Source of the DNA: a virus
Lineage: Duplodnaviria > Caudoviricetes
DNA length: 57,765 nucleotides
Direction: 5' to 3' (one strand)
Virus record (IMG/VR): IMGVR_UViG_3300047481_002095
Coordinates: 1-57,765 of that record
How positions within the stretch are numbered: position 1 is the first letter of the stretch; each line of letters begins with the position of its first letter. A program made the position numbers and the translations under genes. The notes beneath the pieces were generated by a model, which saw only the letters and a program-made list of their open reading frames with translations, had not been told where the DNA came from and did not search any database. Below are positions 3,383-57,030 of the stretch, in pieces.

Positions 3383-3777
3383 ATATGCGTACATTCAAGC
3401 AATTTTGCGAATCGATGGTTGATCTTGATCATTACGCACAAGTGAGCGATCAGGCATTGGATAATGAATATAAATATGGCAGATCAAAACCGGGTACATT
3501 TGGATATGAGGCCAATAAGGGAAGTGCAAAGTTTGCTCTTGAATTGATGCAGAAAGGTGAAACTGATATTGAGGTTCTTTCTGACGCAATCCATAAAGGT
3601 TGGTCAAGTGTAGCCACTACTTATGATGATCCGGTTTATGCCACAAAACCTGAGAAAAAATCAAATCGCCTTAAACTTGCAGAAACACCTTATTCTTCTT
3701 TGCCAGAACAAGAAAAAGAAAAGGATAGAGTTGTGGCCAGAGCTTTGCTTAAAGCATATCAAGAAAATCACGAATAA
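3379..3777 (+). CDS. RyR-domain-like protein with capsid-targeting-like N-terminus
   Basis: IHKGW...PYSSLPEQEKEKDR matches the RyR repeat signature; starts MRTFKQFCES. Confidence 0.6.
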   Translation: MNMRTFKQFCESMVDLDHYAQVSDQALDNEYKYGRSKPGTFGYEANKGSAKFALELMQKGETDIEVLSDAIHKGWSSVATTYDDPVYATKPEKKSNRLKLAETPYSSLPEQEKEKDRVVARALLKAYQENHE

Positions 3778-4671: not shown

Positions 4672-5007
4672 ATGCCTTTTTACGAATTTTGTTGCAAGAA
4701 ATGTGATACAGTATATGATGAACTTTGTTCTCATGATCCATCAGGCAAATACAAGGATGTATCTTGCCCCAAATGCAAAAGCAAATCAAAGAAGAAATTG
4801 ATGTCTGCTTGCAAATATCAATTCTCAAATCCAGAAGGAACAGACCGCTGGAATAGTGAATCAAGCGGTCATGACTATAGGTTTAATCATAACTTGCCAA
4901 AAGTTCTGTCTGAAAGACAAAAGGCAGAAGAAGCAGGAAAGAACCCAAATCCTTACAATAATATCAATGATTTGAGTAGTGACGATTCTTGGGGCGAAGT
5001 GAAGTAG
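4672..5007 (+). CDS. FmdB-family zinc-ribbon protein
   Basis: MPFYEFCCKKC...CPKCKSK..KKLMS signature. Confidence 0.8.
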   Translation: MPFYEFCCKKCDTVYDELCSHDPSGKYKDVSCPKCKSKSKKKLMSACKYQFSNPEGTDRWNSESSGHDYRFNHNLPKVLSERQKAEEAGKNPNPYNNINDLSSDDSWGEVK

Positions 5008-5072
5008 ATTCTTCCAATCTAAGCCAATTCTTGAAGTTTAGTATTGTTTCACCCATTTAGGCTAGATACTGT

Positions 5073-5495
5073 ATGATGCGTTTTCATGAATGGCTGCGAC
5101 TCAGAGAAGGAGCAGTCACCTACAATTATGACCGAGTAGCATTCGCCCGATTGCCTTGGGACTGGCAAGCGATGCGGCGTTTGAAGATTGTCCAGCCAAT
5201 GTTCTACTTCCCAAAGAATACTTGGGTGAACGGTCAACCTCCGCAGGAGGAGGACTGGCAGTACGCCCTCATCACCAAGCAAAATTTGGACAACACGCCG
5301 TCAGATGAATTGTCTGCGACGAACCCGCATACTGGCAATCCACCAGACGAAGCTCACTTTCGTCAATACCTGACAAATCCGCAGGCATGGTATGACGACA
5401 AGATAGATCAGGTCTACAACAGCATTAAGATGGTCGGCAAAAGACCTGAAGACTTCGGCGGCAAGGACATTCGGCAATATTCTCAGAATTCCTGA
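5073..5495 (+). CDS. Hypothetical phage protein with capsid-targeting-like N-terminus
   Basis: MMRFHEWLRLREG; lies in a visibly GC-richer block shared with tnpB. Confidence 0.6.
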   Translation: MMRFHEWLRLREGAVTYNYDRVAFARLPWDWQAMRRLKIVQPMFYFPKNTWVNGQPPQEEDWQYALITKQNLDNTPSDELSATNPHTGNPPDEAHFRQYLTNPQAWYDDKIDQVYNSIKMVGKRPEDFGGKDIRQYSQNS

Positions 5496-5530
5496 CGAAA
5501 AATAAAGCCTGCCATACTAACTAATGCTGT

Positions 5531-6742
5531 ATGGCGAAGGAGCATAAACCAAACCTGTATTCGTACCGCTTTCGGCTCTACCCGAACAAAGAACAGCGTA
5601 TCTTGCTGTCCAAACACTTCGGGGCGATCCGTTTTGTGTACAACCACTTCCTCGCCAGCCGCAAGGACAAGTATCTAGCCAGCAAGAAGTCCAGCAACTA
5701 CTACGGCGATTGCAAACTCTTGACCGAGTTGAAGAAAAAGCACCTCTGGATGAAAGAGGTATACTCGCAGTCGTTGCAGTTTAGTCTCAAGTGCTTGGAC
5801 GCCGCCTACAACAATTTCTTTGCAGGACGAGGTAAGTTCCCTGTCTTCAAGAAGAAGCAAGGTCATCAGTCCTTCCGAATACCGCAGAATGTCAAAATTG
5901 GTGACAACCATCTGTATATCCCGAAGTTCTTGGAAGGGATCAAGATGGTCAAGCATCGTGAAGTCGAAGGCACAATCAAGTTTGCCACGATCAGCAGGAA
6001 CAAGGTTGGGCAGTATCATGTCAGCATCACCGTCGAGCGAGACATGCCTATGCTGCTACCAGTTGACGCTGAGATTGGTGTGGACTTAGGCATCAAGACG
6101 CTGGCGACTTGCAGCGACGGGAAGGTATATGAGAACATCAAGCCATACCGCCAGTTGAAACGCAAACTCAAGATGGCACAAAGGCGGTTAAGTAGGAAGA
6201 AGAAAGGTAGCAAGAACCAAGAGCGAGCCAGAAGGAAGTTAGCCAAGATACATCTGAAGGTGAAGAACATCAGGACTGACCATCTGCACAAGACGACAAC
6301 CAAGATCATCCGTGAAAACCAAACGGTCTATTTGGAGTCGTTGAATGTATTGGGCATGATGAAGAACCATTGTCTCGCAGGAGCGATTGCCGATGCCTCG
6401 TTCTATGAGATACGCAGGCAGTTGGAGTACAAGGCGGGTTGGTATGGGCGAACGGTCAAGTATCTGGATCGTTGGTTCCCGTCGAGCAAAACTTGTTCTG
6501 AGTGTGGCTTCATCAAGCAGGACTTGAAGTTGAAGGATCGGGAGTGGAATTGCCCTCGCTGCGGGACACATCATGACCGTGATCTGAACGCAGCGAGGAT
6601 GATCTTGAAGCAAGGTAAGATAGAAGGAAAACTACCGTTGGAACGACGGGAAGTAAAGCGTGTGGACTTAGAGGAAATCCGACTGAACTATCAGTCGGCT
6701 AAGGTTGAGACACGAAGCCACTCCCCTTTAGGGGGGCGGTAG
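5531..6742 (+). CDS. tnpB: IS200/IS605-family RNA-guided endonuclease TnpB
   Basis: N-terminal HTH (YRFRLYPNKEQ, RFVYN), RuvC-I GVDLGIK, RuvC-II LESLNV, zinc finger CSECG/CPRCG, RuvC-III DRDLNAA; all catalytic residues present. Confidence 0.95.
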   Translation: MAKEHKPNLYSYRFRLYPNKEQRILLSKHFGAIRFVYNHFLASRKDKYLASKKSSNYYGDCKLLTELKKKHLWMKEVYSQSLQFSLKCLDAAYNNFFAGRGKFPVFKKKQGHQSFRIPQNVKIGDNHLYIPKFLEGIKMVKHREVEGTIKFATISRNKVGQYHVSITVERDMPMLLPVDAEIGVDLGIKTLATCSDGKVYENIKPYRQLKRKLKMAQRRLSRKKKGSKNQERARRKLAKIHLKVKNIRTDHLHKTTTKIIRENQTVYLESLNVLGMMKNHCLAGAIADASFYEIRRQLEYKAGWYGRTVKYLDRWFPSSKTCSECGFIKQDLKLKDREWNCPRCGTHHDRDLNAARMILKQGKIEGKLPLERREVKRVDLEEIRLNYQSAKVETRSHSPLGGR

Positions 6743-6747
6743 TTCAC
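5531..6747 (+). mobile_element. Non-autonomous IS605/IS1341-like element (tnpB only)
   Basis: Right end GAAGCCACTCCCCTTTAGGGGGGCGGTAGTTCAC with hairpin and terminal TTCAC; abrupt return to AT-rich DNA after 6747; no tnpA; left end not identified. Confidence 0.7.
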
Positions 6748-6767
6748 ACTATGAAATAATTTGCCTT
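6600..6767 (+). ncRNA. Putative TnpB omegaRNA (reRNA) scaffold plus flanking guide
   Basis: Hairpins CCGACTGA-ACTA-TCAGTCGG (6679-6698) and CCCC-TTTA-GGGG overlap the tnpB 3' end; guide would start after TTCAC at 6748; 5' boundary approximate. Confidence 0.55.
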
Positions 6768-6895
6768 GAAACCAAATAAATGTTATCAATGAACTATAAT
6801 TGGTGCCACTATCATACATTTCGTCAGGACTGATATGTGTTTCCATTTTATTTCCTTAAAACTATTTAGCAAAATTAAATTTTTTATGCTTTGAT

Positions 6896-6924
6896 TTGTT
6901 CTTGATTTTTTGGGTTCTTATAAT
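6896..6924 (+). promoter_or_regulatory. Sigma70-type promoter for prkA-yeaH-spoVR
   Basis: TTGTTC-17 bp-TATAAT. Confidence 0.45.
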
Positions 6925-10527: not shown

Positions 10528-11052
10528 TTGCATTTTGTAGACATAAAATCTTACCCAGATAATTCAGTTCTAGAGAAACATAAGGAACTGTTGAATGAAC
10601 TTGAGTTTATATTTAATTCCATAGATGCCAAAGAACTTTTTATAAAACAATGCAAGGAAAAGAACAGGCTTGACAAGTTTTTATTTTGTCCAAAGTCTTG
10701 CAACAAATTGTGTAAAAAAATGCTTCGTGAAAAAAATTGGAAATCATATAAGCATAAATTCAAATACAAATCTGGAAATTTTAAACATGGAAGCTATGAA
10801 GTTGATTTTTTGAAAAATAGACTTGCTGTAGAGTTACAATTTGGTAAATATGCATTTATGCCAGATAATGTAATGAAGTTTGAAATATTTCACAAACACT
10901 TGAAACTTATTGATGTTGGCATTTTGATTGTTCCTTCCAAACACTTACAATTCAATATGAGTTCTGGCCCCGGTTGTTTTCAGCAAATAATTCAAAGACT
11001 TGATGATCTCAATTATCAAAATCCTTTGATTGTTATAGGTCTTGGAGGTTGA
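10528..11052 (+). CDS. BglII/BstYI-like type II restriction endonuclease
   Basis: YEVDFLKNRLAVELQFGKY...KF...IDVGILIVP, the E-x-D...E-x-Q catalytic signature. Confidence 0.7.
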   Translation: MHFVDIKSYPDNSVLEKHKELLNELEFIFNSIDAKELFIKQCKEKNRLDKFLFCPKSCNKLCKKMLREKNWKSYKHKFKYKSGNFKHGSYEVDFLKNRLAVELQFGKYAFMPDNVMKFEIFHKHLKLIDVGILIVPSKHLQFNMSSGPGCFQQIIQRLDDLNYQNPLIVIGLGG

Positions 11053-11053
11053 A

Positions 11054-14000
11054 ATGTCTTCCAAATTCTTTCACGGATCAAGCCTACTTGTTGGTGACAA
11101 TACTGTTCCCGGCGTTCAACTATCAAAAGAACTTAAAGAATATATTCCAAAGATTCTTCAGGCCTGTCGCAATTGGGGTCTTGATTTCTATCCTACTGTA
11201 GTCCAATTGCTCAATTATGACGAAATAAGCGAAGTAGCAGCTTATGGAGGATTTCCTGTTCGTTTTCCCCATTGGTCTTTTGGAATGGAATATGAAGAGC
11301 TACAGCGTGGATATGAGTTCGGTGGACATAAGATATATGAAATGGTAGTGAATTGCCTAAATTTTTCCGTAAATGTAAGCAGCGCAAGGGGTTACATCAA
11401 AGTTTCAGATGTAAAAATTGGTGATATTTTATTCAGTAAAAATGGTGGAAGAAGGGTAGTTGCTGTTAAAAAACAAGCAAAAAGCAAAGTTGTGAAAATT
11501 GATGCTTTTGGATATTTTCAGGACACGATATGTACGCCAAACCATAAGTGGCAAGTATTAAGAGGTTATAAACCAGAGTGGGTTGAAGCTAAAGATTTAG
11601 TTCAAGGAGATATTTTGATTGCTGGCGGAAAATATGATAATTTTCTTGGAAGCAGCCCACAAATTATATGGTCAAAACAAAAAGTTTATGAATCCACTTT
11701 GCCAAATGTAAGGTGGAAATTGTTTGATATTAATCCGCCAAAACATATGACTGTTGAATTAGCAGAGCTATTAGGCATTTGTGCTGGGGATGGAAGTTCT
11801 GGTGTGAGTGGATCAGAAAATATGATTGCCATTGCTGTTGGCAAAAAGAACAAGCAATATCAGCTTCATATTCAAAACATTTTTCACAAGGTCTTTAATA
11901 AAGAAGCTGCTATCTATGAAAAAGATTCAGGTGATACTGTCGTTTTGTGTTCCAAGTATGCAGTTGACTATTTTAATGAAATTGGAATGAAAAAAAATGT
12001 TACATTTGAATCTAAGAAAGTTCCCTCAATAATTTGGGAGTCTTCTAATGAATATAAAGCCGCTTTTCTTAGAGGAATTTTTGACACAGATGGTCATGTT
12101 AAGACCAGTTTGCAGATGTGCAGTAAGAGTTTTGAATTGATTAAAGATGTACAGTTGCTTTTGTTAGAGATTGGAATATTCAGTAAGGTTGTTCATGTAA
12201 ACAATAAACACAATAATATTTATGTTCTTTATATTTTAGGTAGAAGTAATCAACTTGCCTTTTCAAAATATGTAAATTTTTCAACAGAATATAAGCGTGA
12301 AGCTTTATTTAATTTGGTAAATTCTGGATATGCGATTGCCCACGGGAATAAACTTCCCAATGTACAAAAAGAAATTTTGAGAAGACTTGAAGAATTGCCT
12401 AATCAAAGAAAACTTCCTGCATGGATTAAGAGATGGAAATGGTTATCTAACAAAAAGGATGTTGGTTGTAACACTTTGTGGAGTTTTGTTTCTAGGCTCA
12501 TGAGTGCTGGATACGATGGATTTGAAGATATATTTGAAACATTGCAAAGTCCTATGTATGTGGTTGAAAAATGTGCCGAATATGGAGAGGAAGAAACAAT
12601 CGACATAGCATTGGATCATGACGAACATGATTTCTTGGCAAATGGATTGGTTTCTCATAACACCAACCCATGTTACATCTATAATCTTGCCTCAAATACA
12701 TTGGCAGATCACTTGACAGTAGTGGCTCATGCAACAGGACACAATGACTTTTTCAAAAACAACATTCATTTTAGTGCCACAGATACCAATATGCTGAACA
12801 AGATGGCGAATCATTCTGCTAGGATTCGCAACTATATGAGCAGATGGGGCAAGGAGCGTGTTACAGAATTTCTTGATCATGTTATGAGACTTGAAACCCT
12901 GATAGATGGATCAGAGGCTTGGACTGAAAAAGTTGTAAAAGACAGAAATATTCGTGATGAAAGAAAATACAATAAGCCACAAATGCTGAATGTTGACAGA
13001 AAAAGGCTATATATGGAGCCTTTCATCAATACTTCTTCTTATCGTAAAAAGAAAAATGAGGAGATACATGATAGAGACATTGCTGATGAAATCGGATTCT
13101 TCAAAGAGCCAACTAAGAACATTCTTGGTTTCATTCGTGACAATGCTCCATTGAAGCCATGGCAATCTGATATTGTTTCCATGCTTTATGAAGAGGCAAT
13201 CTATTTCTTCCCACAAAGACAAACTAAGGTCGCCAACGAAGGCTGGGCCTGTGGAAAAAGGGATACTCTTGTTTGTAGTGATTTGGGCATTTTGACCTTA
13301 GGAGAAATAGTCGAAAATAGAATGGCAGTAACCATTTACGATGGAGAACAAGAAAGAAAAGTTACGAATTGGTTTACTTTTGAAAATCGAGATGTGTATC
13401 GCATAGAAACTCGTCGTGGATATGTTTTTGAGGGTTCTAATAATCATCGCATCATGGGCCATGATGATTGGATTCGCATGGACGCAATGTCAGTTGGACA
13501 GTCATTGAAATTGTCTTATTCTGATATTTGGTCAAATGAATTGCAAGAAATTAATTATGAATTACCAGAAAAAAGAATTGAACTTGATGAGATTGCCGAA
13601 ATGGCATCTGTTACAAAATATCAAGTAAGCTATAGGAAATATCATTACAAAGGTGAAGAAAAAAATGATGTTTTAGGAAATCTGATTCAAGAATATGATA
13701 ATCAAAAAACTACTTTTATGCGAAACAAGAGGAACAAGATTAGTGTTCCTGATTATATGACTGAAGATTTTGCTTCATTTGTCGGCTACATGATTGGCGA
13801 TGGACATATTTCCCTAGTGAAAAGAACTATGGGTTTGACATCTGGGGACAAATCACAAATTGATCATTATGCTACTTTGCTTAAAGATTTATTTGGATTA
13901 GAATGTAAGATAAGATGGGATGGATCATCGAAAAATGGTAGGTATAGGGCTTCGGTTAGTTCTAAAGATTTGGAACTACTTCTTATCCATCTTGGCATGA

Positions 14001-15163
14001 AAACAGGAGTTTGTGCCAGAAGTAAAAATATACCAGAAATTATATTGAAATCGCCAAAGAATGTTGTTACGGCATTCATCAGGTCTTATTTTGACTGCGA
14101 TGGTTATGCTGGAAATGCGGGAGTGATACTCTCCACATCGAGCGAGAGTATGTCTCGACAAATCCAGAATGTGCTTTTGAATTTCAAGATTCTCTCAACA
14201 AGGAGAAAGCAAAAAGATTCATGTTGGCATATTCGGATTACTGGCTCAGAAGCGGTTAAATTTGAAGAACAAATTGGATTTGGTCTTCAAAGAAAACAAG
14301 ATAAATTAAGAAAATATGTTTCTGATCACAAATGGTTTCTGGAAAAGAATCTTGAAGATGAGATTGTTTCTGTTGAAAAAACTGGCACAGACACAGTTTA
14401 TGATATCACAGTTGAAACAAGTCATCGATATTCAGCTTGCGGATTTATAAATCATAACAGCACAGTTGACTCTGTCATCATGGCAGAACAAGGCTTCATT
14501 GGACTTGGTCAAAAGTCTGAGGATTGTGGCATTGTAGAGTATGCTGATCACAAGATGGGAGTTCTTGGTGGCAAGTATAGCATGAATCCTTACAAGCTGG
14601 GATTTTACTTGCTTGCCGATATTCGTGAGAGGTGGGACAAGGGCAGATTTGGAACCGAATATGATGAATGCACAGATATGCACAAGAAAGAGAATTGGGA
14701 CACGGGTGCCATGTTGGGCAAGGAGAAAATTTTCGAGGTTAGGAAGTATTATGATGATCTAACCATGATACATGAATTCTTTACAGAAGAGTTTTGTCGT
14801 AAACAAGAATATTTTCATTGGAAACATTATCCAAATGGCGAATACAGAATCGACACAAGAGACTACAAGACTATTAAAAAGAATTTGATGCAAAGACATC
14901 TTAATGGAGGACTGCCTGATATCAGGCTCATGGAGCCTAATTATCTTGGAAGAGGAATAATGCTATTGCAGCATTATCATGATGGTAGGCCTTTGTACGA
15001 GTCTTATCTAGAAGATGTTTTGTCTTCAATTCGATTCCTTTGGAATAATGATGTTGTTTTGGTTTCAAAGGATGAAAATAGTAAGGAAAAAATTTATTGG
15101 CAAAAAGCAAATTATTTTGAAGTAATGGACAGGGAAAAACTCAACAAACAAGCGAATGTTTGA
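11054..15163 (+). CDS. spoVR: SpoVR/YcgB-family protein containing two inteins
   Basis: AYGGFPVRFPHWSFG, KIYEMVVN|TNPC, HATGHNDFFKNN, QTKVANEGWA|S, NPYKLG; ATG 11054 after GGAGG. Confidence 0.92.
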   Translation: MSSKFFHGSSLLVGDNTVPGVQLSKELKEYIPKILQACRNWGLDFYPTVVQLLNYDEISEVAAYGGFPVRFPHWSFGMEYEELQRGYEFGGHKIYEMVVNCLNFSVNVSSARGYIKVSDVKIGDILFSKNGGRRVVAVKKQAKSKVVKIDAFGYFQDTICTPNHKWQVLRGYKPEWVEAKDLVQGDILIAGGKYDNFLGSSPQIIWSKQKVYESTLPNVRWKLFDINPPKHMTVELAELLGICAGDGSSGVSGSENMIAIAVGKKNKQYQLHIQNIFHKVFNKEAAIYEKDSGDTVVLCSKYAVDYFNEIGMKKNVTFESKKVPSIIWESSNEYKAAFLRGIFDTDGHVKTSLQMCSKSFELIKDVQLLLLEIGIFSKVVHVNNKHNNIYVLYILGRSNQLAFSKYVNFSTEYKREALFNLVNSGYAIAHGNKLPNVQKEILRRLEELPNQRKLPAWIKRWKWLSNKKDVGCNTLWSFVSRLMSAGYDGFEDIFETLQSPMYVVEKCAEYGEEETIDIALDHDEHDFLANGLVSHNTNPCYIYNLASNTLADHLTVVAHATGHNDFFKNNIHFSATDTNMLNKMANHSARIRNYMSRWGKERVTEFLDHVMRLETLIDGSEAWTEKVVKDRNIRDERKYNKPQMLNVDRKRLYMEPFINTSSYRKKKNEEIHDRDIADEIGFFKEPTKNILGFIRDNAPLKPWQSDIVSMLYEEAIYFFPQRQTKVANEGWACGKRDTLVCSDLGILTLGEIVENRMAVTIYDGEQERKVTNWFTFENRDVYRIETRRGYVFEGSNNHRIMGHDDWIRMDAMSVGQSLKLSYSDIWSNELQEINYELPEKRIELDEIAEMASVTKYQVSYRKYHYKGEEKNDVLGNLIQEYDNQKTTFMRNKRNKISVPDYMTEDFASFVGYMIGDGHISLVKRTMGLTSGDKSQIDHYATLLKDLFGLECKIRWDGSSKNGRYRASVSSKDLELLLIHLGMKTGVCARSKNIPEIILKSPKNVVTAFIRSYFDCDGYAGNAGVILSTSSESMSRQIQNVLLNFKILSTRRKQKDSCWHIRITGSEAVKFEEQIGFGLQRKQDKLRKYVSDHKWFLEKNLEDEIVSVEKTGTDTVYDITVETSHRYSACGFINHNSTVDSVIMAEQGFIGLGQKSEDCGIVEYADHKMGVLGGKYSMNPYKLGFYLLADIRERWDKGRFGTEYDECTDMHKKENWDTGAMLGKEKIFEVRKYYDDLTMIHEFFTEEFCRKQEYFHWKHYPNGEYRIDTRDYKTIKKNLMQRHLNGGLPDIRLMEPNYLGRGIMLLQHYHDGRPLYESYLEDVLSSIRFLWNNDVVLVSKDENSKEKIYWQKANYFEVMDREKLNKQANV
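11354..12661 (+). mobile_element. Intein 1 in SpoVR with LAGLIDADG homing endonuclease (436 aa)
   Basis: Starts CLNFSVNV, ends GLVSHN followed by Thr; LLGICAGDGS and FLRGIFDTDG motifs. Confidence 0.9.
13250..14458 (+). mobile_element. Intein 2 in SpoVR with LAGLIDADG homing endonuclease (403 aa)
   Basis: Starts CGKRDTLV, ends FINHN followed by Ser; FVGYMIGDGH and FIRSYFDCDG motifs. Confidence 0.9.
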
Positions 15164-15807
15164 TGTCAACATACATTAAAAACAATCAGATACATGGTCG
15201 TTTTAATTCCGAAAGGAATTCAAAATTTGAACATATTGGAAGAAATTCCAATATCGAATTTTGGGAAAGCAAAAAGGGAATAGTCAAGATAAATGATGTA
15301 AATGAAAAAGGGGAACTTGTTACAAATTGTTCTGACTTGATTGTTGAGTTCAAGTCGAAAATGCTTCTTATAGAGGCGGCAACAAAAAGAGCAGACTTGT
15401 TTAAGTATATTGAAGAAGGCGTTGATGTTGAAACAAGAAAGTTAAAGTATTGCAGAAAAGATCAAAAAGGTTTCGTTGGTATGTGTGATTATTATCTTGA
15501 TGAAAATAATGTTGCACATTCAGGAAATGAAATGCTTTTGATTCCCATGGAATGCCTACAATATGCACAAAACAGTTGCGGTAATAATTTCAAAGGGCAA
15601 GGTAGCGTGAAGTCTTCTATTGGTTTTACAATGCCAGAACATGGTTGCCATAGAGTTAGAAAACAATGCAGGAATGGTTTCAGGCAAACAGGTAGCGTTG
15701 AAGACTTTTACAGAATACCACTTGGATATGTTGCTCACTACAGGAAAAATGAAAAAGGTAACTATAATTTAATTAGGAAGCCAATTTGGAGAATTGAAAA
15801 TGGATGA
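15160..15807 (+). CDS. Hypothetical protein, possible PD-(D/E)XK nuclease fold
   Basis: SDLIVEF...LLIEAATKR resembles a D...ExK-type motif. Confidence 0.4.
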   Translation: MMSTYIKNNQIHGRFNSERNSKFEHIGRNSNIEFWESKKGIVKINDVNEKGELVTNCSDLIVEFKSKMLLIEAATKRADLFKYIEEGVDVETRKLKYCRKDQKGFVGMCDYYLDENNVAHSGNEMLLIPMECLQYAQNSCGNNFKGQGSVKSSIGFTMPEHGCHRVRKQCRNGFRQTGSVEDFYRIPLGYVAHYRKNEKGNYNLIRKPIWRIENG

Positions 15808-16015
15808 TACAAGTTTGTTGCTCACAGAGGAATTTCAAAACTTTTCGGCAAAAATCAAGACAATCTTTGAGGAAAAGAAAGCTAAGAAAGAACAGCTAAA
15901 GGCTTTGTATGACAAAGTTCAAGCTGAAATTAAGGCTTTAGATGCTAAAGCCAAAACAGCAGAAGAAGAATTCAACAAGTGGAAAGCATCACAAAAAGGC
16001 AAGCCACAAGATTGA
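15800..16015 (+). CDS. Small coiled-coil protein
   Basis: K/E/A-rich heptads; GGAG RBS before ATG 15800. Confidence 0.55.
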   Translation: MDDTSLLLTEEFQNFSAKIKTIFEEKKAKKEQLKALYDKVQAEIKALDAKAKTAEEEFNKWKASQKGKPQD

Positions 16016-16275
16016 TGAACGCACAATTAAATTTAATATCATTGTTGATTTCAATAACAACAGGCTTATTGATACTTTTCGGGCCTCACGATCTTTATTT
16101 TATTATCGTGACATTCTCGCTATGTGTTTTTCTTTCATCCATTTACAGTTTTGAAACTTTTTGCCGATTTGCAGAATCTAAACCATACTCTAGCACAGCA
16201 CTTGCATCACTATTGTGGTTGCTCAATACTTTTCTGCAATTTTTTACGCTCATAAATAAAATTTCAAATCCTTGA
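16015..16275 (+). CDS. Small membrane protein
   Basis: Three hydrophobic segments; TGATG coupling with the upstream stop. Confidence 0.5.
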   Translation: MNAQLNLISLLISITTGLLILFGPHDLYFIIVTFSLCVFLSSIYSFETFCRFAESKPYSSTALASLLWLLNTFLQFFTLINKISNP

Positions 16276-16284
16276 TATTTTTGC

Positions 16285-16313
16285 TTTACAATCAAAACTT
16301 TTGCCCCTATACT
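16285..16313 (+). promoter_or_regulatory. Sigma70-type promoter of the cas12i-like gene
   Basis: TTTACA (16285-90), 17 bp, TATACT (16308-13). Confidence 0.65.
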
Positions 16314-16321
16314 CAAATGTG

Positions 16322-16373
16322 AGGCAGCAATTTGCTGCCTTTATGAGGAAAATCCTGTATTTTTATATACAGG
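16322..16373 (+). promoter_or_regulatory. Two-hairpin 5' leader (second hairpin is CRISPR-repeat-like)
   Basis: AGGCAGCAA-T-TTGCTGCCT (16322-40) and GAAAAT-CCTGTAT-TTTTAT-ATACAGG (stem-loop 16354-73). Confidence 0.5.
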
Positions 16374-16380
16374 TTTATAT

Positions 16381-19300
16381 ATGGGGATAACAATGTCAGA
16401 TACCACTTTCAGGCCATACAAGTCAAAGTTGAATCCCAATGAACGAAAGATGCCCATGGTTGTTGACACCATGAACTGGTGTGACAATGCTTGCTCTGTG
16501 TTTTTCGACTTATTTGTGGGTCTTTATGGTGGTGTCAAGATAGGGGATGTGACTAACTTTTTGACAGAAAAGCAAGACACTACTACTGACGCTGACTTGC
16601 TTTGTGCCATCAACTGGTTTCGAGCTATGCCAGTCAGCAATCCCGATGCTGTTGTTGGTCCTGAGCAGTTGGTGGTTAGGTTTCGAGATTATTCTGGCCA
16701 CAATCCTAGCCCAATGGCGAGTATGTATCTGTCGGCACCTGTAAATCCAAGGTATACATGGGTGGATTGCCGGTTTTTATATCAACAGATGTGTCAGACA
16801 CTTGGTGCCAATCTTGATGTTGATATCTCCACTCTTGTTCAGACAGGTCTTTTGCCCATTCAAAAAGATACGCAGCTTAATGCCTACAGCTTCTGCTCTA
16901 ATGTTTTTGGAGAGGGCGTGAAAGAAGACCCATCTGCTAAGGTAACTTCATATACAGCAGCAGCAAATGCTCTGAGTGGTGCCACTAATCCAATCATCAC
17001 ATACGAGGATTATCGCCAAATATTGTCTAGTGCTATCACTAATCGTCCATCTCGTAAGGGGGCCAAAGACATTTTGGCTGCTGACCTCGACAGCACCAAG
17101 ACAGGAGTCTTACCGGGAAACTATGTGTCGCAAAGAATCGCAATGTATCAGGCAAGCGCAGCTTCCAAGGCAAGGGGAGTGGTGTTGCCAAATAGGCTTA
17201 GGGTTAAGGCATATTTGCAAAATTTGGTGGGACTGAATTATATCTGCACTACTTGGGCAGCCCCCATGCTCAGGGCAGTAGGAGATATCAAGAGCAAGAA
17301 TAGCAATAACTATCGGTTTGTGGGCGAGAGACTTGAAAGGCAACAGGAAATTGACAACCTTCTCGCAGTTTCAAATATTCGTTCTGCACAGGCTATTCTT
17401 CAACAGTTTCGAGCAAATGAATCCAATCAATTCTACATCAAAAAGAGGCATATTGGCAAGGGTTTGCCAAGTCTTTACGATATGTGGGATTTAATGGACG
17501 AGAAGGAAGGTATCGATAATTACATCCAGTCTCTAAAGGGTGACAAAACTGAAAGGCTACCTATTCGTGAACTATTGCAAATCATCTATCCTCATCGCAA
17601 AAGTGTGAGCGCAGAACTGTTTTTGTCAGCAGCGGAACTGACTGATGTTGAGGACAGGCAAAACAGGTGCATGGTTCATCCGACTGTCCGAGGCAGTTTG
17701 GTAATCAACTTTGGCAAGTCCAGCACAATATTCGGAGCAATTACTCCTCCAGACACCCTCATCAAATTTCGGGGAGAGATGGTTCCCGCTGGTCAGACTG
17801 GCATGATCTGGTTCACTATGCACTTGGTTGATGGTGGCAAATGGGTAAAGCACCACATTCCTTGCCATTCATCTCGATATTTTGAGGAAATTTACGCTTG
17901 GAAGAAAGACCTTCCAACTCTTCCATTTCCTCGCCGTTCCCTTTATGGATACGCTATTGGAAACAAGATTTCCGACACCCGCAAGATTGATTTAAGGAGG
18001 AAAAAAGCCTCCAAGCAATATCTTCGCACTCTCGAAAACATGACGCATAATGTCGAATTTGATCCAACCACTCAATTCATGGTGGACCAAGAACTGAATG
18101 TCACAATTACGGCAAGGGTCAAGAAAATACCTCCTGTTCGTGATGTGCCTGTTGGATCACGAATCATGGGTCTGAATAAGAATCAAACCATTCGTGATTG
18201 TTATTCCATTTGGGAAAGAGTGGAAGCCAACACAAGTGGGAGCTTTCAACATCCAGTAGTGCAAGATGTTTGGCTCAGGCTTGTAGCCGATGGTCATGTG
18301 ACTTCGACTGTCAATGGGCCTAATGGTCAAATTGATCAGATGAGTTATTCAGGCCCAGATGTCGCAAATTGTGGCAACTGGATGCAGGAAAGGTCGAATT
18401 TCATCACTAGCGTTGATGATGCTGACCAAAGCATCATGAAGCACTTCCTCTGGAATAATCGAGTCAAGCTCTACGCTTGGAACTGTGTGTACGCTGGCAC
18501 TTTGATGAAAGCCATCAGCAAGCAGATGACGACTGCCAATCGCAATTTATTCAGGAATGAGATTCTTTCATTCGTGGGAGGTCGATTTGGTTGCCGATTG
18601 GGCAGTTTGGCGCAAGTTTCCCTTGACCTTCTTCGTCGCATGAAGTCTGTTATTTCTTGCTATTTCAGCAGGAATAACGCATTTACAATTGAGGAAAGGT
18701 CTGCATTCGACAAAGAGCTTATGGAATTGTTTGAGTCTCTTGACAACAAGATGAACAACAAGAGAAAGGAAAAGGTCAATCGAACCCTTAGTTCTATTTT
18801 TCAGGTTGCCAAGCAGCACAATGTTGTGAGACTTGTGGTGACCAAGAATCTTCAGACTCCAGACGCAAATGTCAGGTCTGTGATGAATCAGAGGTCTGTT
18901 GACTGGTGTGCAAGGAAGATTGAGGAAAAGATCGTTGATTTAGGTAATGTGATTGGGATTTATGTGGACTTGGTTGAGGCTCTTGACCTGTCACATCTTG
19001 ATCCATTCATCTACATCGCCAAGGGTGATGTCGGCAAGGAGTGTCAGTTTGACGAGGTTGAGTCATCATCTCTTCTGCCTATCCACACTTCGATGTTTCG
19101 TGATTGGCATGGTTTGGTGAATAAGGGCAGAACAACTACTCCTATTTACCATTCAGCCTTGAGGTCATTTGCATCTCACTATGGACTTCGTTTTGATGAT
19201 CTTGCAAGGATCAAGGCAGCAGAACTTGCCAAGATGTTACCTGACCAAAAGGTTTTCATTCCTCACAGGGGAGGCAGATTCTTTATGTCCACTTATCCTG

Positions 19301-19416
19301 TCACCAGCACATCAAGGCCAGTCTCTTACGATGGAAGGCAGAGGTTTTTGAACAGCGGAGACATGGTTGCTCCTGTCAACACAATGCTTCGTGGTTTCCG
19401 ACGAGCTAGGTCTTGA
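16381..19416 (+). CDS. cas12i: Cas12i-family (type V-I) effector, predicted nuclease-dead
   Basis: Colinear with Cas12i1/i2 as remembered: YKSKLNPNERK, LCAINWFR, WVDCR, FGEGVKED, KWVKHHIP..SRYFEEIY, DQMSYSG, RLGSL, SVDWCAR, SHLDPF, IPHRGGRFF, GDMVAPVN. RuvC-I GLNKNQT (vs GYDQNQT) and RuvC-II VVTKNL (vs RGEGDL) lack the acidic residues. True start may be ATG 16393. Confidence 0.88.
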   Translation: MGITMSDTTFRPYKSKLNPNERKMPMVVDTMNWCDNACSVFFDLFVGLYGGVKIGDVTNFLTEKQDTTTDADLLCAINWFRAMPVSNPDAVVGPEQLVVRFRDYSGHNPSPMASMYLSAPVNPRYTWVDCRFLYQQMCQTLGANLDVDISTLVQTGLLPIQKDTQLNAYSFCSNVFGEGVKEDPSAKVTSYTAAANALSGATNPIITYEDYRQILSSAITNRPSRKGAKDILAADLDSTKTGVLPGNYVSQRIAMYQASAASKARGVVLPNRLRVKAYLQNLVGLNYICTTWAAPMLRAVGDIKSKNSNNYRFVGERLERQQEIDNLLAVSNIRSAQAILQQFRANESNQFYIKKRHIGKGLPSLYDMWDLMDEKEGIDNYIQSLKGDKTERLPIRELLQIIYPHRKSVSAELFLSAAELTDVEDRQNRCMVHPTVRGSLVINFGKSSTIFGAITPPDTLIKFRGEMVPAGQTGMIWFTMHLVDGGKWVKHHIPCHSSRYFEEIYAWKKDLPTLPFPRRSLYGYAIGNKISDTRKIDLRRKKASKQYLRTLENMTHNVEFDPTTQFMVDQELNVTITARVKKIPPVRDVPVGSRIMGLNKNQTIRDCYSIWERVEANTSGSFQHPVVQDVWLRLVADGHVTSTVNGPNGQIDQMSYSGPDVANCGNWMQERSNFITSVDDADQSIMKHFLWNNRVKLYAWNCVYAGTLMKAISKQMTTANRNLFRNEILSFVGGRFGCRLGSLAQVSLDLLRRMKSVISCYFSRNNAFTIEERSAFDKELMELFESLDNKMNNKRKEKVNRTLSSIFQVAKQHNVVRLVVTKNLQTPDANVRSVMNQRSVDWCARKIEEKIVDLGNVIGIYVDLVEALDLSHLDPFIYIAKGDVGKECQFDEVESSSLLPIHTSMFRDWHGLVNKGRTTTPIYHSALRSFASHYGLRFDDLARIKAAELAKMLPDQKVFIPHRGGRFFMSTYPVTSTSRPVSYDGRQRFLNSGDMVAPVNTMLRGFRRARS

Positions 19417-19441
19417 TTTGAATTCTTAATTTGTTAATTTG

Positions 19442-19478
19442 GAGGCAGGATTATTCCTGCCTCTTTTTTTTTTTTTTT
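19442..19478 (+). terminator. Rho-independent terminator after cas12i-like gene
   Basis: GAGGCAGGA-TTAT-TCCTGCCTC followed by a 15-T run. Confidence 0.85.
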
Positions 19479-19487
19479 GAGAGCATC

Positions 19488-19892
19488 ATGGAACTTATCA
19501 CAACAACTTGCCAAAAAAAGTGTTTTGGTTTTGATTCTTATCATGGAAGTTGTTGTCGATTAGAAAATCGAGATTATATTATTGGGCCTATTCATGATCC
19601 TCATGAATTTCTTGATCGACTCAATAAGCACTATTCCCAAAATTTTAAGTATTCAGACATTTTTATTGAATATGAGGAGGGAAGTAAGTTGTTTCCAAAC
19701 AAATTTAATTGGCAAAAGGAAAGTGCTTATCCTGCTTTGAGAATTAATTTGACCACAAGTGATAATTCTTGCATATTTTACAACAACCAATTAAAGCTTT
19801 GTACTGTTTATTCTATCAGGCCAAGCATTTGCTCTTCTTTTCTTTGTGATTATTTGCGTGGAGAGCTTGAAAAGACAAAGTCTTTGTCATAA
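19488..19892 (+). CDS. YkgJ-family (CxxCxxCC) Zn/Fe-chelating protein
   Basis: CQKKC...GSCC...CIFY...CTVYSIRPSICSSFLC. Confidence 0.75.
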   Translation: MELITTTCQKKCFGFDSYHGSCCRLENRDYIIGPIHDPHEFLDRLNKHYSQNFKYSDIFIEYEEGSKLFPNKFNWQKESAYPALRINLTTSDNSCIFYNNQLKLCTVYSIRPSICSSFLCDYLRGELEKTKSLS

Positions 19893-22811: not shown

Positions 22812-22842
22812 AAAATAAGGGGAGTCATGCTCCCCTTATTTT
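22812..22842. terminator. Perfect 13-bp inverted repeat, likely terminator
   Basis: AAAATAAGGGGAG-TCATG-CTCCCCTTATTTT between two minus-strand genes. Confidence 0.7.
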
Positions 22843-22861
22843 AACTTAAATTTGGCTAATT

Positions 22862-23764
22862 TCAGTCATCTTCATCTTCATCTTCATCTTCATCTTCATC
22901 TTCGTCTTCGTCATGATCTTCGTCTTCGTCATGATCTTCGTCTTCGTCATGATCTTCGTCTTCGTCATCATATTCGTCTTCGTCATCATATTCGTCTTCG
23001 TCATCATATTCGTCATGATCTTCGTCATGATCTTCGTCTTCGTCATGATCATCGTCTTCGTCTTCGTCATGATCATCGTCTTTGTCTTCGTCGCCGTAAG
23101 AATCTTCTGATGCAGCAACTTCAAAAATTGATTGATTGAGTTTGCGGTTGAATGATTCATTTGTAGAAAGAAGGTGGGCGATAAGGTCGAATGATTCATT
23201 TTGTTGTGTCATGGCAACAAAGAATTCTTCAAAAATGTCGCTTCTTTTCATTTCAAGAATTGTGTCAAGGATGTATTTCTTATTTGAGGCACAAACTTCA
23301 ACTGCTTCCTTGATTGCGTCTATGGCTTCAGATGGGCTGTTTTCCAGACCAGCTAATCTTTCAGAACGAACTCTTTTTGTAAATTCAGCCAAGCTAAGGT
23401 TCTTTTTCTTGTCGAGCCATTCCATGGTTGTATTTTTGGGATATGATCCAAGAACCTTTTCTTTTTCACCATGAGCGGTCTTTGGCATACTTTCGTAGCC
23501 TTTTTTGCCTTTGTGTCCAAGGCCGTCTGTGCCAAAACCCTTGTTGGGATCAGGTGCATCTTTTCCGCCTTTATAAGGAGAAATTTTACCAGATTGGGCA
23601 ACGCCTCCTGCATTTTGTGGGAACTTGCCAAGACTAGGAGATGATGGTGAAGGGCCATCATAGTCAGGTGTAAGTTCTGTTTTGGCCTTCATTCCCTTTT
23701 CATTGGCCTTTTCTCTCATCTCTTCTACATAACGCTGGAAGTTTTGTTTCATAGTTTTCTCCAT
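22862..23764 (-). CDS. Hypothetical protein with about 75-aa Asp/Glu tail (possible prohead core/scaffold or DNA mimic)
   Basis: C-terminal DEDEDH/DEDEYD repeats; N-terminus MKQNFQRYVEE. Confidence 0.6.
   Translation of the reverse strand: MEKTMKQNFQRYVEEMREKANEKGMKAKTELTPDYDGPSPSSPSLGKFPQNAGGVAQSGKISPYKGGKDAPDPNKGFGTDGLGHKGKKGYESMPKTAHGEKEKVLGSYPKNTTMEWLDKKKNLSLAEFTKRVRSERLAGLENSPSEAIDAIKEAVEVCASNKKYILDTILEMKRSDIFEEFFVAMTQQNESFDLIAHLLSTNESFNRKLNQSIFEVAASEDSYGDEDKDDDHDEDEDDDHDEDEDHDEDHDEYDDEDEYDDEDEYDDEDEDHDEDEDHDEDEDHDEDEDEDEDEDEDEDD
22865..23092. repeat. Coding low-complexity tandem repeat (6- and 18-bp units)
   Basis: TCATCT and TCTTCGTCTTCGTCATGA units encoding the acidic tail. Confidence 0.9.
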
Positions 23765-25201: not shown

Positions 25202-25552
25202 GGGGCCGTATTAGAATTCGATTCGGATATGCGTCTTGGGAGTGGCATGTAGTGGTTGGTCAGATGGCCACTATAAAATCTGACTAAAGCCTTAACTGGC
25301 GAAACTGTTTACGCTTTGGCTGCTTGATTGCGGTCACGAATTTAGGTAGCTCGTCATAGGCGACCGAAAATTCGATGTAAATTATGACTGGTCTTTTGAT
25401 TCTCAACGGTCATAGACGAGACAAAGTTGATAGTGCTGAAATAGGTTTTGTTTGTTGTGCCTATTCAGATGACATTAAACAATAAAATAAACATGTAGAA
25501 GCTCTCTTGATGTTATGCGAAGACGGCGGGGCAGAACCGCCCGGCTCCACTA
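25202..25552 (+). ncRNA. ssrA: tmRNA
   Basis: 5' GGGGCCG pairs with 3' CGGCTCC-A (G3-U70 Ala identity); tag frame GGC GAA ACT GTT TAC GCT TTG GCT GCT TGA = (A)GETVYALAA at 25298-25327; T-arm GGCGG-GGCAGAA-CCGCC. Confidence 0.92.
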
Positions 25553-38181: not shown

Positions 38182-38675
38182 AATTCAAAGAACCAATAAA
38201 TCTTGTTCCTGTTCAGGATATTCCAAAGGCACAGGATGTGCCTCTTGATAATCTCATGGATATATTCAGGCTTTGTAACAAGTTGGAGGTTATCTGTGAA
38301 AAAAATAATGGAATAGGCTTATCTGCTGTACAGGTAGGAATACCATGGAAATTGTTTATCATCAAAAGAAACAGACATTATGAGTATTATGTAAATTGTG
38401 ATTACGAAGGTAGTGGCGAAAAGCTGAAATCCCTTGAGGGATGCTTGTCAATTAAAAAAGAAAATAATGAATATCGTAGGTTTGAAGTTGAAAGGTATTC
38501 ACTTGTAAAGATTACAGGAAAACAACTAATTGTTTCTGGTACTCCATCACTAATTTTACAAGATGTTAACACAACTGAAAAAGAATTATATTCAATTGTT
38601 TTTCAGCATGAAATAGATCATAGTAGAGACATACTCATTTCAACAATAGGTCGTGAAATTGAAATTTTGGAGTAG
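38178..38675 (+). CDS. def: Peptide deformylase
   Basis: GIGLSAVQVG, EGCLS, QHEIDH. Confidence 0.92.
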   Translation: MKFKEPINLVPVQDIPKAQDVPLDNLMDIFRLCNKLEVICEKNNGIGLSAVQVGIPWKLFIIKRNRHYEYYVNCDYEGSGEKLKSLEGCLSIKKENNEYRRFEVERYSLVKITGKQLIVSGTPSLILQDVNTTEKELYSIVFQHEIDHSRDILISTIGREIEILE

Positions 38676-38957
38676 ATGATGCTAAGTCTCAAACAATTAA
38701 AAGATGTTTGTTTGGTAAACAATAACACTTATCGTCGCTGTCGTTATCTTTGCCAAGATGATATAGACCCCCAAAAGTTTTATTGTATGAAAATGTCTGC
38801 AAAAGCTAAAAGTATTGATCATGAAATACAAAGCTATGTTGACTTAATGAAACTAAAAGGCAAAGACCCAACTAGGGATAATTTGCCTCTAGGAGACAAT
38901 TGTCAGGGATATCCTTTGCTAAGGCATCTTGAGCAAGGTTATGATGTCAAAGATTAA
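38676..38957 (+). CDS. Hypothetical Cys-containing protein
   Basis: 93-aa ORF with RBS. Confidence 0.5.
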   Translation: MMLSLKQLKDVCLVNNNTYRRCRYLCQDDIDPQKFYCMKMSAKAKSIDHEIQSYVDLMKLKGKDPTRDNLPLGDNCQGYPLLRHLEQGYDVKD

Positions 38958-55974: not shown

Positions 55975-56016
55975 AATCACAAAAATTAATTGATTTAAGG
56001 GCAAAAAAAGGCTAAT

Positions 56017-57030
56017 GTGTCCTCAAGAGAGGACTTGCCCGTGACCAAAAAAATTAAATATTTGATGTTCCAAAGCACTAGAAGGTTTGGTGTAGAGATA
56101 GAGGTTGGAAGTGAAGTAAAAAAGAATGATGTTAAGTTCGCAATAGAAGAATCAATGAACCAAAAAGCTTATGTAAGCAGATATGCTCTTTCAAACAATA
56201 ACAAGTATTGGCATATAAAGGATGATGCTTCTTGTGGCATCAAAGGCAGAAAAGGCCCTAAGGGTGTTGAAATAGCATCATTTGTTGGTAGTGGCTTGTC
56301 TGATATAGACAACATATCAGAAGTAGCAGTTGTTTTAGAAGGCATTGGATGCAAGATTAATGATAATTGTGGTTTTCATGTTCATGTAGAAGTTAATGAT
56401 TTGTCTCTTAAGCAAGTTGTTGTTTTGATGGCTCATTGGATCAAGATTGAAAAAATACTAAGCATGACTTTGCCAGTTAGAAGAATCAACAATGAGCATT
56501 GCAAGTTTGTTTGCAATCCATTCGATAAGAAAAAAGCTGTAATGGAACACGGCAACTCATACACTCTTGAACAAATATGGGAATGCGTTTGTCCCAAGAA
56601 TTTAAGTTATTATGACAATGATGATAGAAGGTTCAATTTGAATCTTGTTAATTTAGTTCGATCAATGAGAGACAATACTCATAGTAGACGAACATTAGAG
56701 CTTAGATGGCCAGAGGGAACTCTGAATGCTGTTGACATTCGTTGTTGGGTCAAATTGTTCATTATGTTTATTGAGAATTGCAAGGATCGTTCTGTTCCTT
56801 TTGATTTAACATCTTATGAACTCGAAAAAACATTAGAATGTTTTGGGTTGGATCACTATCCCGAATGCTTTTTCATTTATAGCGATTCTATACAAGAGCT
56901 TAAAACATGGTTCTTAGAAAGAATACTTTTGCATGGCATAGAACTCAAGGATTTGTTTGATGTTGAAAACACGATTAAAAGAGCAAAGATTATTTTGAAT
57001 AAAATGTGGAATCCAGAAAGGAAATATTGA
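56017..57030 (+). CDS. Putative amidoligase-family enzyme
   Basis: RRFGVEIE, W.IKDDAS, GVEIAS, CGFHVHV, TLELR. Confidence 0.8.
   Translation: MSSREDLPVTKKIKYLMFQSTRRFGVEIEVGSEVKKNDVKFAIEESMNQKAYVSRYALSNNNKYWHIKDDASCGIKGRKGPKGVEIASFVGSGLSDIDNISEVAVVLEGIGCKINDNCGFHVHVEVNDLSLKQVVVLMAHWIKIEKILSMTLPVRRINNEHCKFVCNPFDKKKAVMEHGNSYTLEQIWECVCPKNLSYYDNDDRRFNLNLVNLVRSMRDNTHSRRTLELRWPEGTLNAVDIRCWVKLFIMFIENCKDRSVPFDLTSYELEKTLECFGLDHYPECFFIYSDSIQELKTWFLERILLHGIELKDLFDVENTIKRAKIILNKMWNPERKY

Follow-up and report, generated by a model that had tools for sequence, protein, structure and literature searches.

A Cas12i with replaced cleavage residues and no adjoining CRISPR array, probably nuclease-dead, in a huge phage

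The linear IMG/VR record IMGVR_UViG_3300047481_002095 (57.8 kb, analysed in full and referred to below as the window) encodes a homologue of Cas12i, the effector of type V-I CRISPR–Cas systems, in which residues needed for DNA cleavage have been replaced. Very probably, this Cas12i is unable to cut DNA and is kept by selection as a complete, well-folded protein whose RNA-handling residues are intact. The record comes from a huge freshwater phage, of which it is only a part: its CheckV completeness is 13%, about one-eighth of a genome of roughly 440 kb, and it encodes a virion structural protein (phrog_1645, E 3e-97), a DNA polymerase and a PhoH-like protein. The open reading frame (ORF) at 16381-19416 (+) runs for 1011 codons without interruption. 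Because homologues begin at the equivalent of ATG 16393 (MSDTT...) and a GGGGA ribosome-binding site (16383-16387) lies upstream of that codon, the protein is probably 1007 amino acids long. The guanine-plus-cytosine (GC) content of the gene is 0.448, compared with 0.354 and 0.344 for its flanks and 0.364 for the window.

By descent and predicted fold, the window protein is a Cas12i. A phmmer search of the PDB aligned its residues 8-1003 with positions 4-1029 of the Cas12i2 chain (E 2.2e-86; PDB chain numbering is the native numbering plus 1) and also retrieved Cas12i1 (E about 1e-44), both at about 24% identity. An AlphaFold2 model built on 38 homologues reached a mean predicted local distance difference test score (pLDDT) of 89.3 and a predicted template modelling score (pTM) of 0.78. 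In Foldseek, this model matched the Cas12i2 ternary complex 6LTU with template modelling (TM) scores of 0.82/0.80 and Cas12i1 7D3J with 0.82/0.78, while the next family, Cas12b, scored 0.60 or less. The homology is full-length, and the predicted fold comprises the REC lobe, WED, RuvC and Nuc domains. Neither Pfam nor PHROGs gave a match for the protein; Pfam evidently holds no Cas12i model able to reach it. With Cas12i2 and Cas12i1 (PDB 6LTU, 6LTR and 7D3J), the protein shares colinearity along its whole length, the fold, the Lys/His/His residues that process CRISPR RNA (crRNA) precursors and several crRNA contacts. Unlike them, it has the RuvC-I Asp, the RuvC-II Glu and the Nuc-domain Arg replaced, and no array adjoins its gene. 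The positions concerned are the following, with residues counted from the ATG at 16381 and the roles of the processing residues taken from PMC7567891:

16393-19416, + strand: coding sequence of the predicted nuclease-dead cas12i, in a frame open from ATG 16381
16447-16449, + strand: K23, aligned with Cas12i2 K18 (pre-crRNA processing), kept
17851-17856, + strand: H491 and H492, aligned with Cas12i2 H485 and H486 (pre-crRNA processing), kept
18175-18180, + strand: N599-K600 (GLNKNQT) in place of the RuvC-I Asp-Gln (GYDQNQT) in the HMMER alignment; codon of N599, AAT, at 18175-18177
18841-18846, + strand: T821-K822 in place of the RuvC-II Glu-Gly (RGEGDL); codon of T821, ACC, at 18841-18843
19045-19047, + strand: Q889 in place of the Nuc-domain Arg (Cas12i2 R900), from the alignment with Cas12i2
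19360-19362, + strand: D994, the third RuvC Asp, kept in the alignment

In Cas12i2, D599 binds both metals and E833 binds metal B (PMC7567891), and R900 is the Nuc-domain Arg that holds the scissile region (section 10 of the same paper). According to its sections 10 and 11, Ala at any catalytic residue, or at R900, abolishes cleavage. Since both of these metal ligands and the Nuc Arg are replaced in the window protein, DNA cleavage by the usual mechanism is very unlikely, and N599, T821 and Q889 mark a member of the family by descent and fold that is not an active nuclease, with D994 alone kept of the RuvC triad and the Nuc Arg. The original prediction, drawn from the DNA sequence without database searches, had described an intact 1011-residue ORF, richer in GC than its flanks, in a large phage. 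It had also reported end-to-end colinearity with Cas12i2, the replacement of D599 by N599 and of E833 by T821, and the retention of D994 and of the His pair. The base composition, the homology search and the structural comparison agree with all of this, 1007 residues being the probable length, and the AAT and ACC codons align under the Asp and the Glu. The replacement of the R900 equivalent by Q889 is a third loss, new relative to that prediction.

These columns were compared in an alignment of 38 near-full-length homologues (A3), out of 47 homologues of at least 600 amino acids; three fragments (P0009, P0030 and P0040) and six remote hits (P0048, P0050, P0051, P0053, P0054 and P0055) were left out. 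The RuvC-I Asp and the RuvC-II Glu are each present in 35/35 of the rows outside the dead group and the Nuc Arg in 34/35, whereas the three dead rows carry N/N/N, T/T/V and Q/Q/Q, respectively. Two of the remote hits, P0050 and P0054 (E 2e-8 and 2e-5), have non-canonical letters in the RuvC columns, in an unreliable alignment that matches only their N-terminal 170-180 residues. Beside the lost carboxylates, each of the three dead lineages has gained K600, and two of them have gained K822. The other residues of the RuvC pocket (N601, Q602, T603, S871, H872, R966 and D994) are kept in the dead clade.

The RNA-handling side of the protein is conserved. Trimming of pre-crRNA by Cas12i2 is metal-free and proceeds via K18, H485 and H486 (PMC7567891, section 17), and the corresponding site is present at the sequence level, as K23, H491 and H492, in all members of the dead clade. 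The main text of that paper names four base contacts of Cas12i2 to the repeat (section 7). Equivalents of K537 and Q648 are kept, and the E640 region is variable in all proteins. The Q809 contact is Glu in the dead clade and likewise in the active sisters P0006-P0008, two of which, P0007 and P0008, fall together with L004 and L006, loci that bear arrays. From these few residues, namely the kept K537 and Q648 and the sister-like Glu at Q809, we infer that the dead proteins should recognise a handle like that of their active sisters. Each repeat of the sister phages terminates in a handle that starts with AGAAAU, as the Cas12i2 handle does (A-23, G-22, A-21, A-20 ... U-18; PMC7567891), and continues in a stem-loop.

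The loss of the cleavage residues extends to a whole clade. Three close relatives, 66%, 56% and 41% identical to the window protein, were retrieved from 5.8 billion proteins, and a search of 1.84 billion cluster representatives gave 54 matches; 42 library proteins had E <= 1e-30. In a maximum-likelihood tree of 41 rows, the window protein is monophyletic with P0003 and P0004, with a value of 100 in the Shimodaira–Hasegawa-like approximate likelihood ratio test (SH-aLRT). This dead clade is nested in a 10-row clade (support 100) whose other members keep the Asp, the Glu and the Arg, and three rows of which adjoin CRISPR arrays (L002, L004 and L006). Its stem branch (0.45) is no longer than the stems of its sisters (0.39-0.53), so there was no burst of change. 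The 90%-identity clusters of P0003 and P0004 add dead-clade members from several sources. The dead pattern, together with the retained Lys, His pair and Asp, occurs in 10/10 full-length proteins belonging to three lineages 56-66% identical, and the fragments of the clade agree at every site that they cover.

Natural variants of the gene were obtained from contigs of four other freshwater metagenome runs (X3, X4, X6 and X9, from three studies), the possible source runs X1 and X2 being excluded. These contigs align to the dead cas12i at 90-100% identity with zero insertions or deletions. Among 40 of the 96 differences, those listed, 39 fall within the ORF, where 34 codons are changed, 24 synonymously and 10 non-synonymously. 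With a neutral expectation of 3.56 non-synonymous sites per synonymous site, the ratio of non-synonymous to synonymous polymorphism (pN/pS) is about 0.12 (binomial P 1.9e-9 for the 34 listed codon changes). Codon 599 is unchanged in the X6 contig, which covers it without differences. In the dead trio, conservation extends along the entire protein and peaks in residues 451-600 (WED and the processing site; 1.28-1.30 relative to the clade mean), while residues 801-900 (RuvC-II and Nuc) have a relative conservation of 0.87-0.89, compared with 1.10-1.12 in the active sisters. The REC lobe and the PI region are as conserved as in the active sisters. Judged from the sequences, this is the conservation profile of a protein that keeps its job apart from catalysis. 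Because the whole clade has lost the catalytic residues and purifying selection acts on the gene, the comparison points to exaptation rather than decay, neutral decay being excluded for practical purposes. Exaptation had also been proposed in the original prediction; the uniformity of the dead clade and the low pN/pS are in line with it, and active close homologues combined with neutral decay of this copy were not seen.

At the same locus, sister phages carry an active Cas12i and an array. Two IMG/VR records are syntenic with the window (L002 and L003; 168 and 226 kb, 39% and 52% complete). They share with it the promoter core and the neighbouring genes, with identities of 90% for PrkA, 87% for DUF444, 86% for SpoVR, 61% and 71% for two small ORFs, 59% for a CxxCxxCC protein and 88% for the PHP/DnaE part. 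Cas12i itself is only 39% identical between the window and these records. It is the most diverged gene of the syntenic block, at 39-42% (against L002 10001-13090 and L008) compared with 59-90% for the neighbours, and the active sister alleles are mutually 44-48% identical. Its sequence variation suggests that the cas12i locus of this phage family is a hot spot, either for cassette exchange or for diversifying selection.

In L002 and L003, an array of 36-nucleotide (nt) repeats, with 13 units, starts about 130 bp downstream of cas12i and extends as far as the next gene. The arrays of the sisters that fall in the same 10-row clade as the dead proteins (L002/L003, L004, L006 and L008) have 6 to 29 repeats and lie 180-190 bp from the stop codon. 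In L002, an inverted copy of the 5' part of the repeat lies just upstream of the first repeat (13254-13267, - strand), and the array closes with a degenerate repeat that borders directly on the start of the following gene (14181-14199, + strand). No array adjoins cas12i in the window: the 71 bases after the stop codon hold only a terminator, which takes the place of the sisters' array, and homology resumes inside the next gene. Both elements flanking the gene are consensus matches only:

16285-16313, + strand: promoter-like site TTTACA-17-TATACT, with 10/12 consensus matches; its core aligns with the active cas12i loci L002 and L009
19441-19478, + strand: terminator-like hairpin (19441-19464) followed by a run of 15 T, in the interval that holds the leader and the 13-repeat array in the sisters

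The stand-alone unit with its own promoter and terminator that had been predicted is recognisable at this level. The promoter core is common to the dead and the active loci, and the leaders diverge downstream of it. The active L002 allele matches its surroundings in GC content (0.353, flanks 0.368), whereas the dead allele does not (0.448, flanks 0.35). The sisters also differ from the window in keeping the Asp, the Glu, the Arg and the arrays, and L002 and L003 additionally carry solitary handle units. On these comparisons, the simplest history would be that a ready-made dead cassette, consisting of leader, gene and terminator, replaced a cas12i–array cassette at a highly variable locus.

Searches for a guide source in the window were negative, as the original prediction had found for an array and for cas1, cas2 and cas4, in a stretch that covers about 13% of the genome. 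Tandem Repeats Finder, two direct-repeat searches and a covariance model of the sister repeats (R1, built from 16 repeat variants of four sister arrays and scanned with filters off) detected no CRISPR array in the 57.8 kb, R1 retrieved no full repeat, and Pfam gave no match to Cas1, Cas2 or Cas4 in the six frames. The best R1 matches, at 5360-5385 (E 0.15) and 3640-3657 (E 1.1), are 5' halves of the repeat without the hairpin inside ORFs and were rejected as chance; the first of them lies in ORF 5073-5495, which has no Pfam match. No other dispersed or spaced repeat family in the window suggested an array. With the two peptide patterns used, no Cas12i was found in 185,579 prokaryote species genomes, and the handle pattern gave only single sites in prokaryote genome contigs, among the best 80 of at least 120 stretches. 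A single-protein search of IMG/VR loci found no related locus, the same search with alignment A1 found only active relatives, and INPHARED phages contained no match to the dead cas12i by megablast or tblastn.

In the sister phages, R1 located mature handles that stand alone, a long way from the array (E 4.5e-6 to 6.3e-4), in records G001 and G002:

L063 1513-1544 (= L067 1500-1531): solitary handle
L064 1498-1519: solitary handle
L065 1496-1519: solitary handle
L066 1461-1482: solitary handle

Three of the four distinct handles end 15-17 nt before the ATG of an ORF, and the gap holds a ribosome-binding site. The ORFs encode proteins of 93 (unknown), 352 (amidoligase-like) and 276 (unknown) amino acids. 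One handle begins at the stop codon of an upstream ORF, the window homologue of which is peptide-deformylase-like. The two syntenic sites of the window (about 38660-38680 and 56000-56045) are without solitary handles. Such handles may mark sister mRNAs for binding or cutting by Cas12i.

As to function, our preference, a tentative one, is that the dead Cas12i captures V-I crRNAs supplied in trans and so acts as a dominant-negative anti-CRISPR or shield. The original prediction had offered two jobs, an RNA-guided DNA binder or a decoy that captures host crRNAs. It would still recognise the 23-nt V-I crRNA handle, would probably retain the trimming of pre-crRNA via K23, H491 and H492, and would still form R-loops that depend on the protospacer-adjacent motif (PAM). 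Retained DNA binding is suggested by the REC lobe, which is as conserved as in the active sisters. With two metal ligands and the Nuc Arg lost from the cleavage pocket and K600 and K822 gained, the protein would hold DNA instead of cutting it, an effect to which the new lysine pair at the former metal site might contribute. Its guides would be supplied in trans, either by V-I arrays in close phage relatives that infect the same hosts or by an array of the host, because the cassette is array-less, compositionally unlike the rest of the phage and seemingly imported as a unit. Loaded with these crRNAs, the protein would withhold them from the active nuclease and would occupy the matching protospacers, leaving them uncut. 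The locus might thus represent a 'sword or shield' polymorphism, with an active Cas12i and an array in some phages and a dead Cas12i alone here.

Several observations favour capture in trans. Some features expected of a decoy are present, in that the protein is phage-borne, its nuclease residues are replaced and the window holds no array, and active V-I systems exist in sister phages. Those V-I-armed relatives, with near-identical neighbour genes, are a system at hand to be countered, and a nuclease loaded with crRNAs directed against the phage itself must be dead to be useful. The one published parallel, an array-less phage Cas9 with an inactivated RuvC (variant II-C2), has been read in the same way: it is also phage-borne and a disabled nuclease, and is thought to sequester crRNAs as an anti-CRISPR, as described in PMC11656645 and PMC12669027. 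It differs in belonging to another effector family, in having a still active HNH domain and in needing a phage tracrRNA, whereas Cas12i needs none.

Other points weigh against capture in trans. None of the 56 spacers of the four sister arrays matches the window, chance matches reaching up to 18 nt. Two of these spacers were searched against IMG/VR and retrieved no protospacer: one found nothing but its own arrays, and the other had no match. An array could lie in the unseen 87% of the genome, and within the dead clade the absence of an array is known for the window locus only. The conservation of the REC lobe fits DNA binding and would be superfluous for a pure RNA sponge. A shield that binds the DNA of its own phage could carry a cost to replication or transcription.

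The main rival, plausible though on the whole unlikely, is natural CRISPR interference, in which the dead Cas12i, with crRNAs from an own array or from solitary guides elsewhere in the roughly 440-kb genome, would repress the transcription or replication of host or competitor genes. It would account for the retention of the RNA-processing and crRNA-contact residues and for conservation along the whole length, including the REC lobe. The window covers only 13% of the genome, and the solitary handles of the sisters lie far from their arrays, so guides need not adjoin the gene. To our knowledge, however, the natural dead effectors described have their guide encoded beside the gene. Here the array is gone from the syntenic site, the 57.8 kb hold neither an array nor a canonical solitary handle, both syntenic solitary-handle sites are empty, and the cassette resembles a self-contained import. 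Precedents are known from related proteins. Repression was proposed for a phage Cas14 without a catalytic residue (Al-Shayeb 2020, PMC7162821), and Cas12m, Cas12k, TldR/dCas12f and the phage 'dCas14' are natural RNA-guided DNA binders, of type V or derived from TnpB, that do not cut (PMC10442227, 10.1101/2021.07.07.451486, 10.1101/2023.11.30.569447 and PMC7162821). All of these belong to other Cas12/TnpB branches, and none is a Cas12i.

A further reading concerns the leader of the gene, which contains two hairpins:

16321-16341, + strand: first leader hairpin, with a 9-pair stem and a 3-nt loop (ViennaRNA leader fold)
16346-16373, + strand: GGAAAAT, an A-rich lead-in, and a CC...GG hairpin (7-pair stem, 6-nt loop), a candidate crRNA-handle-like element that ends 19 nt before ATG 16393

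The second element resembles the sister handle AGAAAT-CCGTC...GACGG. According to this reading, the protein would be an RNA-level regulator that binds, and perhaps cuts, handle-like hairpins in mRNA leaders, its own leader first, and covers the ribosome-binding site without targeting DNA. The layout of the window leader (hairpin, 19 nt with GGGGA, ATG) agrees with it, as do the canonical handles of the sisters, which precede three ORFs (93-352 amino acids) at a distance of 15-17 nt from the ATG. Standalone repeat-like sequences also occur upstream of cas12a in about half of V-A loci, according to PMC10120712. However, R1 does not score the leader hairpin at E <= 10, and hairpins of this type are not enriched in the window (4 found, 1.9 +/- 1.4 expected). 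The leader-hairpin pattern occurs at 53 loci in IMG/VR, all of them single sites with no array. Only one variant contig, X3 record 3, extends over the leader, where it shows no difference, which leaves no covariation to count. An Rfam scan of 15800-19700 gave nothing near the gathering scores, and when the 31 nt that follow the hairpin are treated as a guide, the window offers no seed match beside a TTN PAM. The reading also leaves the conservation of the PAM-side and REC domains unexplained, and we regard it as improbable. The leader hairpin is a lead rather than a finding, for which its layout, like that of the solitary handles of the sisters, speaks.

A broader version of this idea, itself rather doubtful, is that the Cas12i of this huge-phage family has a second, RNA-level job. 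It would cut and then stay on handle-bearing mRNA leaders, setting their translation or stability, and the dead array-less clade would be a specialised, purely RNA-recognising regulator. RNA anti-CRISPRs (Racr) and cas-regulating crRNA-like RNAs (CreR, crlRNA) are similar in that they, too, are repeat units standing alone, either in the genome of a phage or ahead of cas genes, and engage Cas proteins (PMC10651486, 10.1101/2023.03.10.532045 and PMC10120712). As those sources describe them, these RNAs act on a host effector or on a cas promoter, whereas each candidate in this phage group stands before the ribosome-binding site of a phage gene, and the leader hairpin cannot be recognised as a copy of the repeat.

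Altered catalysis is very improbable. The pocket that is left (D994, N601, Q602, T603, S871, H872 and R966, with the gained K600 and K822) would then use a single metal to nick DNA, or would cut RNA in a metal-free way, and the pocket residues are indeed kept in all three dead lineages. However, metal B has lost both of its ligands and metal A has lost one, and the Ala mutants of Cas12i2 D599, E833 and R900 are inactive (PMC7567891, sections 10 and 11). The kept residues are conserved family-wide and may be structural or bind the displaced strand. The absent array and the three lost cleavage residues might also suggest a pseudogene decaying after array loss, the chance of which is negligible given ten intact genes of about 1000 codons across lineages only 56-66% identical, a pN/pS of about 0.12 with zero indels in natural variants, no long branch in the tree and a confident full-length predicted fold.

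Some further features of the window were recorded. A trio of PrkA, DUF444 and SpoVR genes is present in this phage at 6948-15163. LAGLIDADG and intein-splicing domains interrupt SpoVR (11042-15163, 1373 amino acids), and for its residues 135-539 L002 offers no more than a weak match, at 24% over about 190 residues. Between DUF444 and SpoVR lies an ORF for a BglII-like endonuclease (10528-11052), which has no match in L002. A GC-rich island at 5001-6900 (0.45-0.48) contains a tnpB gene (5531-6742; OrfB_IS605, Cas12f1-like TNB and a helix-turn-helix); the syntenic sister contigs lack this island. At its 3' end, tnpB includes a handle-like hairpin (6674-6700) that is probably part of the TnpB guide-RNA scaffold. 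A transfer-messenger RNA was identified at 25202-25552 (+) with Rfam RF00023 (95.3 bits, gathering score 47) and was not reported by ARAGORN, which also found no tRNA in the window. An acidic tandem repeat coding for Asp and Glu (periods 9-18) lies at 22830-23129 (-) in ORF 22862-23764 (-), and its position is conserved in the sisters (L002 17597-17780).

With respect to novelty, a full-text literature search, with supplementary tables outside its scope, found no natural nuclease-dead Cas12i, and V-I or Cas12i is absent from a review of CRISPR in mobile elements and from the 2025 classification. Al-Shayeb 2020 (PMC7162821) had already described type V-I in huge phages and suggested a phage 'dCas14' repressor, and most phage effectors, not all, keep their catalytic residues according to the same paper. 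The original suggestion that a dead Cas12i in a phage is undescribed is therefore upheld within that search, but its setting is not new, since V-I in huge phages, the phage dCas14 repressor and the dead-RuvC phage Cas9 decoy have all been published (PMC7162821, PMC11656645 and PMC12669027).

Natural nuclease-dead effectors reveal other uses of RNA-guided proteins, and Cas12k, Cas12m, TldR and dCas12f each opened a new mechanism or tool. The present case would be the first natural dead effector from the Cas12i branch. It is unusual in having no array, in its position at a locus where sister phages keep an active system, and in that purifying selection can be demonstrated from natural variation. 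The dead Cas12i would offer a ready-made dCas12i scaffold tuned by evolution, in which the two lysines of the pocket may have a stabilising effect on R-loops. Should it prove to capture crRNAs from rival phages, the effector itself would have been turned into an anti-CRISPR, and the case would provide direct evidence of CRISPR warfare and counter-measures between huge phages.

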